Made by a program: the position numbers
Source of the DNA: Escherichia coli
GTDB lineage: Bacteria > Pseudomonadota > Gammaproteobacteria > Enterobacterales > Enterobacteriaceae
Reading direction: 5' to 3' (one strand)
Assembly: GCF_013122565.1 (NCBI RefSeq)
Contig: NZ_CP053258.1
DNA: 64,000 bases
Part shown: piece by piece, positions 48,001-54,000 of the stretch
Layout of the letters: every line of letters starts with the position of its first letter
Numbering within the stretch: position 1 is the stretch's first letter

Positions 48001-51000
48001 TTGCCCATGCCAGCCACGATAAACCACTGGCTAAGCCGACAAAAAAGCTGGCATGTCGTAATAAATCCACCCGTTCCTGGAGAGGCAGCACTCCGGTAAA
48101 ATCTTCGGCCCCCCATGGAATATGATTCCAGACAAAGCTATTGCCTGTATGAGCATTGCGGTCAATACACAAAACCCGATACCCAAGTTTCTTTAAATGA
48201 CTAATCACTTCAGACCATCCAAGACCATTATTCCAGTGTTTCGCCTGTGCTGTAGACTGCACGGCAATACAGACATAAGGGTCAGGGATTTTCCTTTCAG
48301 CTGAAAGATTGAGTCGGGGTGGTTCTTCCTGAGGAGATACTCCCAGGATATATCCGGCATTACGATGAAAACCAACCAGACGGAAATCTACAGGCTGGTT
48401 ATCTGTATCTCCATTAAAAAACAAACCAATTCTGTACGTTGCATATGGTTTACCTTCATATTTATCCTGAGTTGCTGTAAACTTTATTTCCGGATAATTA
48501 TCTGAGAATAGTGTTACGAACTCTTCACTAACGGAGCATTCCAGTTTGCATTGATGTTTTATACGGAATTTTTCAGCGTAGTGAAACCATGCAATAATAT
48601 CTCCCAGCGTTCCTGTCGGAAATGATATTAAAACATGCTTACTCTTCAGGTTCATTACAGTGTCAAGGCAGGGGTGAACTTCTCCTTTTTTAAATGCCTG
48701 CACCCTAAACTTCACATAATATTTTTTTGTGCTTGTTACCCACCCTCCAGACGTATCGCATGAAAATAAAATATTTCCTGAATCATCATCAATGATATTA
48801 ACATGCCACTCGCCTTTCGGAAGCAAAACTCTTGCTCCATCATTAAAATCATACAGAATACCTTTATCTCCTTCTTGGGTTGGAGTTCCTGTTAATGATA
48901 CAAAAGCCATATGATTCTCTCCTGAATTATAAATTGTTCTTGGAGTAGCAATGCCTGATACGAATGGAGAAAGATGTTGTATATATTAGCGATATATCAT
49001 TCATCTTCTTGACGATTGAGAGAGGAAACTTTATTAACTATAATGTGATTTTAATTGTTATGAGTAAAATGGAACATATCTTTTTCTGAAAGATGAAAAC
49101 CATCAATTCTTTTTATCTACCTTTAACTGAAGCGGTCTAGTAATATTGGCCACGGTTTTACAGTAAGAACGGTATCTGTTCTCTGATTCTTCCGGCATCA
49201 CCCCCCCGTCGGCTAGCAGATTCGGCAGGCCGGTATGCTCCTGGCGTGCGTTTTTGTACTGATGTTTTCCGGGCTGACAACTGCTCAGGTTCAGCTATTT
49301 CATCAGCCCACGGCACGATAATGGCTCATCAGGATGCCATTTTGAGTCAGTATATCTGTCAGAGTGCGCGCACCTGCGGAACCCCGACTCTGGTTCCAGG
49401 CCCGGCGTATTTCGCTATACAACCTGACTCGCGCCGGATCAATGGTATCGCGCCGCTTCTGCCAGTACCGGTAACTGCTGCGATGTACGTCCAGAGCAGC
49501 ACAAAGGCTGACAACCGTGTAGCTGCCGCTCAGTCTGGTAACTATCGTAAACCGTTCAGCGAGTCGGACATCAAGAGCGAGGTAGCCTTTTTTAATCTCG
49601 TATTGGCACTGTGTGCCAGTATTGAAATCCACGAAATAACTTACTTACCAAGTTTCTACATATCCCGTGTGGTTTGTGGATTCACTGAGTTTTGTTTGTC
49701 AGATAATGCACAATCGTTATCCAGAATTTTTGCAGACATATTTCGTTCTACCAAGAGCCGGCAAATCTCTGCGTGCTTCTCCTCAGTGAAGGTGAAGAGA
49801 GACATAAAGGCTATTCGGATCAGTGAGCCTATTGCAGGTAGCAGACAAATCCCGAAGAACAGACCCGATAGCACGCTTTCTTTCTGGATTTGTTCTTGCG
49901 GCACGTAGTCAATCATCGTCAGGAATACACCTATGAGCCCGCCGCCAACTGCAACCGACATCTTGCCGGTAAAGGTTTGTCCGGAGAAGGTGATTGCCGC
50001 GCAGCGTTTGTGGGTGTGATACTCCGCGTACTCAATGGTGTCAGCAATCATTGACGAGGTGAGAATGTTGGTCATCATCACAAAAAGCGTACTTAGACCA
50101 AGTAGAATAAACAGTATTGTCACCTGTTGATATCCAACCACCCACATCACCAAGCGTACCGAGACGTCTAGTCCACAGAGGATCATAAACAGCTTCCGCT
50201 TCTGCATCCGGCGTGTCAGCATCGGCGAGATCAGGCATAACATTGCTGCTAAAATCCCCATAACACCAATAGCCATCTGCAGGCTGCCATCTCCCAGATT
50301 ATTGATAAAGAAGTAGATATAAAGCCCGCCTGCCACGTTGTGGAATACGCAGAAAAAGAACGACAGCAAAACTATAAATAGCGGCTTGTTTTGACGCAGG
50401 TTATAGAAGGTGTCGCGAATAGTTACCTTTTCCGGGCTTGGCGGCACGCGCTCTTTGATCTGTACAAAGCCGTTTAGCATCAGTGGCAGGCCTACTAGCA
50501 TCATTATCAGCGCAGCCATAAAGTAACCCTTATCGTCGCTGTACTGGGCGAAGAATGCCGCTAGTTTTGGGAAAAAGATATTGGCGCAGGCAATCCCGAC
50601 GTTTACCCCGAGCATCGCCGCAGTGACAACACGGACACGCTGAGCGGAGTCATTGGTCATCACCGATGACATCGACCAGAACGGGATATCGGAGATAGCA
50701 TATAGCGTCCCCCATAGAATGTAGGTTACCCCGGCATAGAGAATTTTTGTGGTCATGCTCGCATCGATTTTATAGAAAGAAAGCAGCGTGACACCTGTGA
50801 TCAACAGTGGAGCGATCAGTAAAAAGTGACGAAATTTACCGAACCGACTGTTAATAATATCCATAATGCTAGCAAAAAGAGGATCGTGAACTGCATCCCA
50901 TGCGCGGGCGATCAGAAAAATTGTGCTTGCCGCCAGCGCCGAGATCCCCAGCACGTCAGTGTAAAAATAGTTAATAAACGAACCCACTAAGCCAAAGCTA

Positions 51001-54000
51001 AAACACTGACCTACCCCATAACCAAAATAAGACCACAACTCACGAGACGGTATTTTCATTGTCGTTATCATTGATATATACCTGCTTGATCACCCGGCGG
51101 CAGAGCACCGGGTCGATATTATTAGTAGTGCACCTTCGGGGCGATCTTGCGTAACTGCAAAATCAGGTCGATTTCACGGCGTGAGAAAGGAAAACCATTC
51201 TCCTCAAACACGTCGTGGAACCAGAGACGACAGTAGTCCGTGGAATTTTTCATCACCACAGGCCAGGGTAACCACGTCTGGGTTTTGCCGCGTACCAGTC
51301 CCCACTGATATGGAGCAACTTTTGCCATGTACATTAGTGGAAGCTGTTCTTCAACAGTACTCCCCAAGTGTCGTGCAAGCCATTCGGTGCAAAACAGTGG
51401 GCGATCCAGTGCCTGTAGCTGCTGGATAATTGCCACCATACGGCTGGTGTGAGTGTATGCGTGGAAGCTCACCACGTCTGAAAGCGACAGCGCTGTCTGG
51501 TCAAGTGGATGCTGGAAGAATATCTCGTCTTCTTCCGGTGACAGATGCCATGCGCAGACAGTGAGCGGCTGAGTCGGATCTTCTTCACGTACCCATCGAA
51601 ACGCCAGGTTCATTAGCTCGTGGGCGCAACTTTCCAGCTTTGCATCATATTGAACCTCCTGCGTACCTGTCGCGAAAATGCCGCGGTTACCAGGTTCGTT
51701 ATATAGATCCCACAACAATACGCGCTGGTCTTCACGAAACTGACTAACAATATCGCGGATATAGAGTTCAATCTGCGGCCAAAAATCGCGATCGCAGACT
51801 TTATCACGTCCAGGACTTGCTGCCGCCTGGCTATTGTGTTTGCCCGGTACAGGAGATTTTTGCGGGCCGAGATAGGGTTCGTCACCGGAGAAGCCACAGT
51901 CATCCATCAGGGTCAACATGGTGCTAAACCCGTGACCGGCAGCAATCGCCAAAAAATGGTCAATGCGGGCTATCAGCCCGTCGCGGTCGTGCTCCCAGAC
52001 GATAAACGGCAGATTGATGCGAAGAGTGTTATAGCCCGCGGCCGCTGCCCAGCCTAGCTCACGCTCGATGGTTACCGCATCAAATGTTTCCTCTTGCCAG
52101 ATATCAGTCCAGTTCACCGCCGTCGACGGCAGATAGTTAAAACCGCACAGCCAGCCTTTTTGTTCATACCATGTTTGTGCCTGCTCTCTACTCCACTGCT
52201 CTTTCATTACCAGTCCTCTAGATAATAATGTTTAGCTAATAAATATTAGCTGAAAAGTAAATGCACAAATGATTCTGTTAATAAAAGAGACTCCCCTCAC
52301 AAAGCTCATGCATCGATGAATCAGAAACGTGAGCGATCGCCCGAAAGCGTGCGGTTAGGGTATGATGTGAAATCGCAAGAGGGGGAAAACGGATGAAGCG
52401 AAAAACGAAAGTTACGATGAACGATATTGCTCGAGTGGCAGGGGTATCGCAGGCAACGGTATCACTGGTACTTAATCAGTCCCGCAACATCAAACTTAGT
52501 GACGACACGCGCCAGCGGGTTATTAACGTGGCCACCGAGCTCGGCTACGACCGCCTCCCCGCCATTCACGCCCCGCGCAACCAGGAGGAGATCGCCCTGC
52601 TGGTAAGCTCACTGCAAATCTTCGACCCGTTTATTGACGCCATTAGCCAGGCGCGAGAATCTGCGTGGCGCAACGAAACCTTACTCACTATCTACGACTA
52701 TGGTGATGACATCGAGTTGGCACTGAACATCATCCGTCAGTTGGAAACGCGTAACTGTATCGGGATTATTCTCGCTTCCCCTGTCACTACGCTGGTTGAC
52801 ATGAGTGCATTCCTGGACTTCACTCACATACCTCTGGTGCTTCTCAACCAGTGCGACCCCGGCTCGCCGCTTCTGCCATCGTTTATTCCAGACGACTACG
52901 CTAATGCTTTCCAGGTAACCAAACATCTCATCTCCTGCGGCGCAAAGCGTATCGCACACATCACCGGAGAGAGTTGGATGGAGGCCTCTCGACAGCGTTT
53001 GGCGGGCTATCAGGCAGCGCTGCAACAGGCTGGATTAGCCTGCGATGATAGCCTGGTGCGCCAAACCAACTGGCAATTCAGCGAGTCCTTCACTGCAACC
53101 ACTTCTCTGCTGGAGCTAACCGAGCGGCCGGACGCCATTTTCTGTGCCAGCGATTGGCTGGCGATAGGCTGTTATCAGGCTTTGGCTGTAAACGGTATTA
53201 GTATACCACAGGATATGCTGCTGGCGGGTTATGATGATCAGAAGATATCCGAACAACTCACTCCACCACTGACCAGTATCCAGCTACCCTATAGCGAACT
53301 GGGACGGCTGGCAGTGGAGTACCTTTGCAATCAGGAAGACGCTGCCACACATGTAACACTGGCAGGCAGGCTAAAAGTGCGGGCTTCGAGTCTTTTCTGA
53401 GGTAACTGTCGGTTGTTTTGTTATGCGCGCCATTCGCTACTCAACGCTTTCTTCTGACAGCATGTTGCTATAATGTAAAATATACTCAGCCATCTCCGGA
53501 GAATCGAAATGGAACTTCGCCAGTTACGTTATTTTGTCCGTATTGTGGAAACCGGCAGTATGGGCAGCGCGGCGCTTGATCTCGACATCGGTGTCTCAGC
53601 GCTCAGTCAACAGATGACAAGGCTGGAAAATGAACTCGCCATTCGTCTGTTGCAACGAACCTCGCGTGGCGTAACGCCAACTAACTCGGGTCTGGCCTTT
53701 TACTCACAGGCACAGCTGGCGTTGCGTCATGCTGATGATGCCATTCTTGCTGCGCGCGATGCACGTCTGTCAGGACACGTCAGCGTCGGTATGGCCCCCA
53801 GTACAGCCTCCGTCCTGGGGGTGCCGTTTATTCATGCCATGCGGGCACATTACGCCGACGTTCGCCTGCATGTGGTGGAAAGCCTGTCAGGTAATCTGGA
53901 ACGGATGATCAACACCCGTCAGATTGATCTGGCCGTTGTTTTTCGGAAAGAAAAGCACCTGCGCTGGAGCGCCAGGCCAGTTCTCGAAGAGCAGCTTTTT

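Follow-up and report, generated by a model that had tools for sequence, protein, structure and literature searches.

The window analyzed here, a 64,000-nt stretch of Escherichia coli DNA (GCF_013122565.1, contig NZ_CP053258.1), contains between positions 49656 and 53400 a gene for a LacI-family regulator that diverges from a pair of genes for a glycoside hydrolase and a sugar symporter. What kind of system is this three-gene module, and which sugar does it serve? The original prediction, made from the sequence alone, saw in it a strain-specific uptake-and-hydrolysis unit and leaned toward β-mannosides or xylosides as substrates. The unit itself stands, and the substrate has shifted, since gene neighborhoods and domain fusions lean to galactose-containing glycosides. 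Taken as a whole, the reading that we favor is that of a lac-operon-like, horizontally acquired catabolic module acting on a β-galactoside, which we hold to be just short of an even call; the general lac-like mechanism, leaving the sugar aside, is very probable.

Gene content of the module

Open reading frames (ORFs) were listed in all six frames of the window, and their products were then assigned to families by domain profile searches (Pfam and NCBIfam). The three module ORFs have exactly the predicted coordinates and strands, and all are full length. The regulator gene (335 amino acids; 52393–53400, plus strand) is separated by a divergent intergenic region of 185 bp (52208–52392) from the hydrolase gene (361 amino acids; 51122–52207, minus strand), which is followed after a 50-bp gap by the transporter gene (471 amino acids; 49656–51071, minus strand), the second gene of the hydrolase-transporter operon. 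None of the three proteins reaches a named NCBIfam equivalog cut-off. The description of the module as a compact unit of LacI regulator, clan GH-A hydrolase and GPH symporter is borne out by the domain searches, by a confident barrel model and its fold neighbors, and by conservation of the triad across genera.

The regulator has the two parts that define the LacI/GalR family, an N-terminal helix-turn-helix domain (PF00356, 53 bits) and a periplasmic-binding-protein-like effector domain (Peripla_BP_3 PF13377, 108 bits; PF00532, 89 bits), and it matches the solved structures of RbsR, CcpA, PurR and LacI at E values of 1e-23 to 6e-35. It lies under all NCBIfam equivalog cut-offs, the best being RbsR (163 vs 382 bits), and is predicted to be a repressor.

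The transporter belongs to the GPH:cation symporter family (TIGR00792, 308 bits, cut-off 231; MFS_2, 205 bits), and among solved structures it is closest to the melibiose permease MelB (E 1.9e-37, residues 16–420). It falls below the equivalog cut-offs for MelB (211 vs 456 bits), the glucuronide transporter UidB/GusB (210 vs 528), YagG (201 vs 610) and YihP (155 vs 836). We also note that its residues 58–63 read WDAVHD and align with what we take to be the MelB cation-site motif, WDAIND; both aspartates are kept and a His stands in place of MelB Asn58, a substitution that might indicate coupling to protons rather than sodium.

The glycoside hydrolase

The original prediction allowed that the hydrolase might match no carbohydrate-active enzyme family or might lack catalytic glutamates, and neither is the case. 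It passes the Pfam Cellulase/GH5 profile PF00150 weakly (30.2 bits, cut-off 23.5), and no NCBIfam model matched it. PF00150 picks up only 18 of 30 family members at E ≤ 1, and the profiles of GH10 or GH2_C give matches to some as well. When all PDB sequences were searched with the protein (phmmer) or with a profile of the 30 members (hmmsearch), no full-length match was found; the partial matches, to GH10, GH5 and GH164 proteins, cover the strand with the Asn-Glu-Pro (NEP) motif alone (~75–95 aligned residues, E 4e-4 to 0.1). NCBI names the protein "cellulase family glycosylhydrolase," and its homologs carry just that name or "1,4-beta-xylanase." Because the PDB matches are only sub-domain in extent and lie around the NEP strand, we rejected the xylanase label as unsupported.

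An AlphaFold2 model built from the 30-sequence alignment is a confident (β/α)8 barrel (predicted local distance difference test [pLDDT] 89.6; predicted template modeling score [pTM] 0.91). The NEP motif pointed out in the original prediction is N170-E171-P172 (codons checked, 51692–51700, minus strand); it follows modeled strand 163–167, at the end of β-strand 4, and holds the predicted acid/base Glu. The predicted nucleophile lies in T274-E275-W276 (codons checked, 51380–51388, minus strand), which ends modeled strand 271–275, β-strand 7. The model thus has both the triose-phosphate isomerase (TIM) barrel and the strand-4 Asn-Glu and strand-7 Glu of clan GH-A, and by strand position E171 and E275 are its predicted retaining dyad. 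R63, H124-N125, N170-E171-P172, H249-x-Y251, T274-E275-W276 and W302 are invariant in the alignment, and the window hydrolase retains every family-invariant residue.

The GH5 signature comprises Arg (strand 2), His (strand 3), Asn-Glu (strand 4), His-x-Tyr (strand 6), Glu (strand 7) and Trp (strand 8). Seven of its eight residues are clear here, with R63, N170-E171, H249-x-Y251, E275 and W302 at the matching modeled strand ends; the strand-3 His is not at a strand end, and the invariant H124 lies in the following loop. The nearest folds are GH5 β-mannosidases and mannanases, at 13–16% identity in structural alignments. By sequence similarity the protein falls outside the β-mannosidase and mannanase subfamilies (GH5_7, GH5_18 and the Op5Man5 group), and the paper on GH5 subfamilies offered no clue to where its group belongs. 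We regard it as a clan GH-A enzyme of GH5-like type, just at the limit of what GH5 profiles can recognize, its GH5 membership being clear on signature residues and borderline on profile score.

A loop of ~30 residues after strand 3 (residues 100–133, window ~51809–51910, minus strand; DDCGFSGDEPYLGPQKxPVPGxHNSQAAASPGR) is strikingly conserved, almost invariant across phyla, and is the least confident part of the model (block pLDDT 60–79). Its probable role is in shaping the active site, and the family may have its hallmark here. Lacking an N-terminal signal peptide, the enzyme is predicted to be cytoplasmic. Its homologs number 1793 matches in a word-indexed search and 2868 clusters at 50% identity in an exhaustive one; GTDB species representatives have at least 598 loci. 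The homologs range over Enterobacterales, Aeromonas, Vibrionaceae, Rhodobacteraceae, Planctomycetota, Chloroflexota and Armatimonadota.

Operator and promoter region

A LacI-type palindromic operator had been expected in 52208–52392, and comparison of the intergenic regions of 27 loci, in which the LacI and hydrolase genes are direct divergent neighbors, recovered one. The palindrome ATTAGCTAAT (at most one mismatch) lies 9–65 nt upstream of the hydrolase start in 26 of these regions, often as two copies 12–13 bp apart, and its density there is 234 times that found in the other 412 kb of locus sequence, where it is nearly absent. A footprint alignment of six genera shows no variation in the operator block, in contrast to its drifting flanks. 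As a predicted site, this conserved palindrome is the operator near a regulated promoter that is characteristic of LacI/GalR systems.

In the window the predicted operator spans 52226–52255 (strand unassigned; the plus strand reads TTTAGCTAAT), with its core at 52231–52240, 23 nt upstream of the hydrolase ATG; a degenerate second copy, TATTAGCTGA (52244–52255, read on the plus strand), lies 13 bp from the first. The spacing of cores is 13 bp in E. coli, Enterobacter and Klebsiella and 12 bp in Yersinia, an uncultured Enterobacteriaceae metagenome-assembled genome (MAG) and Photobacterium rosenbergii, and many loci have a single core within a longer palindrome of up to ~28 bp. Additional copies near the regulator gene in Photobacterium ganghwense, Vibrio sp. 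SCSIO 43135 and an uncultured Succinivibrio suggest autoregulation at those loci. Most LacI-type operators have a CG center, whereas the half-sites of this one meet at a central AGCT, and we found no published description of this operator. Our first operator candidates, ATGCATCGATGAAT (52308–52321) and GAGCGATCGCCC (near 52331), are not conserved in the orthologous regions of Enterobacter, Klebsiella and Pluralibacter and were dropped.

The second conserved block of the six-genus alignment is a CRP-like site, TGTGAGGGGAGTCTCT (TGTGA-N6-TCxCx; 52286–52301, minus strand), which has two mismatches to TGTGA-N6-TCACA and is centered 58 bp upstream of the operator center; at most of the 27 loci the two centers are 55–58 bp apart. 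Mismatches in the best CRP-like match number 2.15 on average over the 27 regions, compared with 3.40 in shuffled sequences (minimum 2.89, 200 shuffles). A consensus scan found no strong sigma-70 promoter in the intergenic region and no consensus terminator after the transporter gene. A weak promoter consensus is expected if the promoter is activator-dependent, and since no strong one is present, the start site is one that we infer. CRP at −41.5 would place the operator center near +15, close to that of lac O1, which is centered at about +11, and CRP at −61.5 would make the operator overlap the −10/start region; repression at the promoter together with catabolite control is predicted under both placements.

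Conserved gene neighborhood

The neighbor set comprised 79 loci from a genome scan, earlier look-ups and the window; ORFs were called, neighbors were clustered, and counts are given per 84 loci. The commonest hydrolase neighbor is a divergent LacI gene (56 loci). The transporter partner is a GPH symporter in 26 loci, mostly of Gammaproteobacteria, and an ATP-binding cassette (ABC) system of binding protein, two permeases and ATPase in 33, mostly of Rhodobacteraceae; at its smallest, the conserved unit consists of a regulator, a hydrolase and one transporter. No kinase, isomerase, dehydrogenase or other catabolic enzyme is conserved alongside the hydrolase in these loci, which argues for a small oligosaccharide as the likely substrate, with products that would enter core metabolism. 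Several recurrent neighbor clusters were discounted as antisense ORF artifacts in high-GC genomes or as housekeeping genes (proVWX, nrdEF, ilvD, fumA).

Three variants of the neighborhood deserve mention. A paralogous hydrolase (~55% identity) is encoded at a constant place in the chromosome, dacC-gst...yliI, in Citrobacter, Pseudocitrobacter, Kluyvera, Superficieibacter and one Enterobacter species (loci L004, L022, L023, L043, L070 and L072, around 8001–9095 in each); some copies are accompanied by a LacI gene and a lone ABC binding protein, and L043 has no adjacent LacI gene, yet carries a ATTAGCTAAT site upstream. In Buttiauxella, Hafnia and Citrobacter sp. FP75 (L017, L020 and L026, ~3000–8000) a longer GPH transporter gene (513–539 amino acids) stands before the hydrolase gene, with three Gfo/Idh/MocA-type oxidoreductase genes and one for a LacI regulator ahead of the pair; this arrangement suggests a different, possibly oxidative, pathway variant. 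In Chloroflexota and Planctomycetota, DUF4380 is repeatedly found directly upstream of the hydrolase or fused to it (L073 7914–11624; L080 449–1720; L083 484–1743; L084 6601–7860; proteins P0192, P0194 and P0208). It may be an accessory domain of the hydrolase family; we found no literature on it.

Distribution and origin

The prediction that the module is strain-specific and foreign to K-12 agrees with a megablast comparison to 5426 complete E. coli genomes. Only six of them carry it, at 99.7–99.8% identity and between hipBA and the ydeT-ydeQ fimbrial genes as in the window, and it is absent from K-12; in ~2500 other matching E. coli records the match is confined to a neighboring insertion sequence (IS) fragment of the IS3 family. 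The exact hydrolase protein occurs on 326 public contigs, and its 90%-identity cluster has 4242 members, mostly from the Enterobacter cloacae complex. Over its full length the transporter aligns with its E. cloacae orthologue at 90% identity. The few E. coli carriers, the dominance of the Enterobacter cloacae complex in the cluster and this end-to-end match mark the module as an intact piece of DNA gained by horizontal transfer, foreign to K-12. The original prediction had left room for its being a known operon; no characterized operon or relevant paper was found in the literature on the hydrolase protein, DUF4380, the operator, mannobiose/Enterobacter/GH5 or galactosylglycerol.

The substrate and alternative explanations

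Which sugar the module serves is best approached through its neighbors. Leloir pathway genes lie near the hydrolase in 7 of the 84 loci, compared with ~0.25 expected by chance (a rough estimate that ignores phylogeny), and are its most recurrent catabolic neighbors. galE-galT-galK-galM adjoin the module in two Photobacterium species and one Vibrio, and Aeromonas sanarellii has galETKM, the hydrolase gene and a GPH gene in one direction; galM adjoins the module in A. media and is part of the operon in a MAG of Oceanospirillaceae, and a Pirellulales MAG has galK close by. A GH36 α-galactosidase gene follows the transporter gene in two loci, and a GH42 β-galactosidase gene is nearby in two. Distant hydrolase homologs occur as tandem copies or as fusions to GH43, GH51, GH78 rhamnosidase, GH29 fucosidase or DUF4380 domains; the first four are typical of arabinogalactan and pectin side-chain breakdown. 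In none of the 84 loci is a ManA homolog encoded within 8 kb. In other lineages the ABC substrate-binding proteins, when compared with solved binding proteins, gave generic maltose, acarbose and UgpB-type matches and no clue to the substrate. It is because of the Leloir genes, the GH36 and GH42 neighbors, the arabinofuranosidase, rhamnosidase and fucosidase fusions and the lack of manA that we favor a β-galactoside from plant or algal glycans; β-D-galactose as the sugar cleaved is nevertheless a tentative choice, in which we have somewhat less than even confidence.

The fold itself speaks against galactose, since the closest solved structures are mannan-active enzymes. If it is the better guide, the module would import β-manno-oligosaccharides or another β-mannoside, and the hydrolase would be a cytoplasmic exo-β-mannosidase like those of GH5_18, Op5Man5 and CmMan5A. 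The mannose context of the GH5 mannosidase subfamilies is missing, however, no mannan-related partner having been found among the annotated neighbors, and we consider a mannoside unlikely, ranking it third. Ahead of it comes the same lac-like mechanism applied to some other pectin- or arabinogalactan-type glycoside or related sugar (β-xyloside, β-glucoside, β-glucuronide, α-L-arabinopyranoside or -furanoside, or β-galactofuranoside), a possible but doubtful reading. In its favor, a GH43_26-type exo-α-1,5-L-arabinofuranosidase (closest PDB entry 3akf, E 4e-63) shares an operon for an ABC system and a porin with the hydrolase in Serratia oryzae and Aeromonas media, a GH127 β-L-arabinofuranosidase adjoins it in one Armatimonadota MAG, and GH51 and GH43 are among the fusions; GPH transporters also carry pentosides and glucuronides (TIGR00792 family definition). 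The database name "1,4-beta-xylanase" and weak GH10 profile matches around the NEP strand point the same way, but the xylanase names have the short, marginal alignments described above as their basis, ara, xyl and uxa genes do not recur among the annotated neighbor clusters, and it is the Leloir genes that recur most. A β-galactoside thus stays first in our ranking.

It is also conceivable, though very improbable, that the module is inert, a decaying remnant in an IS-scarred island that is no longer expressed or functional in E. coli. Decay would fit the IS3 fragment on its flank, its presence in so few complete genomes and the lack of a consensus promoter or terminator. It fits poorly with three full-length ORFs, a hydrolase that keeps all family-invariant residues, a transporter collinear with its Enterobacter orthologue, the retained operator and CRP-like blocks, the near identity of the six genomic copies and the occurrence of the exact hydrolase on hundreds of contigs.

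Proposed mechanism

By analogy with lac, we propose that without inducer the LacI-type repressor would sit on the ATTAGCTAAT-type palindrome at 52226–52255, at or just past the operon start, and block transcription; cyclic AMP–CRP at 52286–52301 would be needed for activation, placing the operon under catabolite control. In the induced state, the GPH symporter would bring in a small β-linked di- or oligosaccharide on a cation gradient, and the signal-less GH5-like enzyme would split it in the cytoplasm, presumably in exo fashion and by retaining double displacement, E171 serving as acid/base and E275 as nucleophile. Plant or algal glycans would be the source of the substrate, on our favored reading a β-galactoside. 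The released monosaccharides would enter core pathways, galactose by the Leloir pathway, which would explain why the module contains no kinase or isomerase. Repression, activation, cation coupling and exo-acting cleavage are predictions in this scheme, and the identity of the sugar is its most conjectural part.

A bolder proposal, which we think more doubtful than not, is that the hydrolase represents a distinct GH5 branch or a new clan GH-A family, marked by the conserved loop and with an activity new on this scaffold, and that it belongs to an undescribed AGCT-operator LacI regulon extending from Enterobacterales to Vibrionales and Aeromonadales. Such an activity may be, for example, that of a cytoplasmic exo-β-galactosidase feeding the Leloir pathway from galactosides of plants or algae (galactosylglycerol or arabinogalactan-derived galactobioses, for instance).

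Genes flanking the module

The module lies in an island of ~14.6 kb flanked by hipA and the ydeT fimbrial genes. Its order is an AIDA-I-type autotransporter gene with an Aah/TibC heptosyltransferase gene (44148–48910), the IS3 fragment, the module and tcuRABC (53509–58412), after which the common E. coli backbone picks up again at ~58,670–58,700. The IS3-family transposase fragment (49303–49632, minus strand; NF033516, E 1.8e-15) forms the left edge of the module and is a boundary scar without functional role; it covers profile positions 86–170 of 369, and RefSeq labels it an incomplete IS3 transposase. A 220-amino-acid ORF that overlaps it on the plus strand (49246–49908) is unsupported and looks spurious.

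The adhesin locus (minus strand) encodes an intact chromosomal AIDA-I-type adhesin of 1195 amino acids and an Aah/TibC strand-loop-strand O-heptosyltransferase (TIGR04414, 602 bits). Its best matches are plasmid-borne AIDA-I loci (~95%), one of them from a porcine enterotoxigenic E. coli strain, and the autotransporter at this site is truncated in the six complete genomes that share the sugar module. On the other side the module is adjoined by the tricarballylate utilization operon tcuR-tcuA-tcuB-tcuC (plus strand). This operon is present in 36 of the 5426 complete E. coli genomes and is plasmid-borne in 27 of its 38 places; the six chromosomal copies at ≥99% identity are in the same genomes as the module.

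Significance and comparison with known systems

The module challenges no established principle. Its hydrolase family is large and phylogenetically broad, has no solved structure or curated model and bears misleading "xylanase" and "cellulase" labels. With the substrate identified, thousands of annotations would be put right, and a niche trait could be accounted for, both in bacteria of the Enterobacter complex and in the few lineages of E. coli that have acquired the module. The module brings the enzyme together with its full set of regulatory and transport parts, open to test in a host that is easy to manipulate genetically, and its repressor, defined predicted operator and putative CRP site are a means to fish for the inducer.

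With the lac operon the module has in common a LacI-family repressor (predicted here), a palindromic operator at the promoter and an upstream CRP site, as well as a cation symporter paired with a cytoplasmic retaining clan GH-A glycosidase whose products need no dedicated downstream enzymes. It differs in that LacZ is a GH2 enzyme and LacY an oligosaccharide:H+ symporter, whereas the module has a 361-amino-acid, single-domain GH5-like barrel, a GPH transporter and a divergent regulator gene. The GH5 exo-β-mannosidases (Op5Man5, 7bob; GH5_18, e.g., 9y4v, 7lr8 and 6gvb; CmMan5A, 1uuq) are its neighbors in fold, without a significant sequence or profile match; unlike them, the module family has its own invariant loop at residues 100–133 and a context without mannose-pathway genes.

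The K-12 systems melAB, uidAB and yicI-yicJ likewise place a GPH-family symporter gene beside that of a cytoplasmic glycosidase for an imported small glycoside. Their partner enzymes belong to GH36, GH2 and GH31, in contrast to the GH5-like enzyme here, and the module transporter reaches no equivalog cut-off (~200–211 bits with the models of MelB, the glucuronide transporter and YagG) and is therefore no orthologue of a named K-12 transporter. Bacillus subtilis ganSPQAB combines the LacI-type regulator GanR, a transporter and a cytoplasmic GH42 enzyme for import and use of galactan-derived oligosaccharides. If the substrate is indeed a galactoside, the module would share with it a LacI-type repressor, oligosaccharide import and cytoplasmic exo-β-galactosidase action, and would differ in having no GH42 or GH53 enzyme and a GH5-like one instead. 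The module is a familiar kind of system built around an uncharacterized enzyme family, to which our analysis adds a fold-level placement of the enzyme, a conserved architecture of operator and CRP site, and a likely substrate shifted from mannosides and xylosides toward galactose-containing glycosides.

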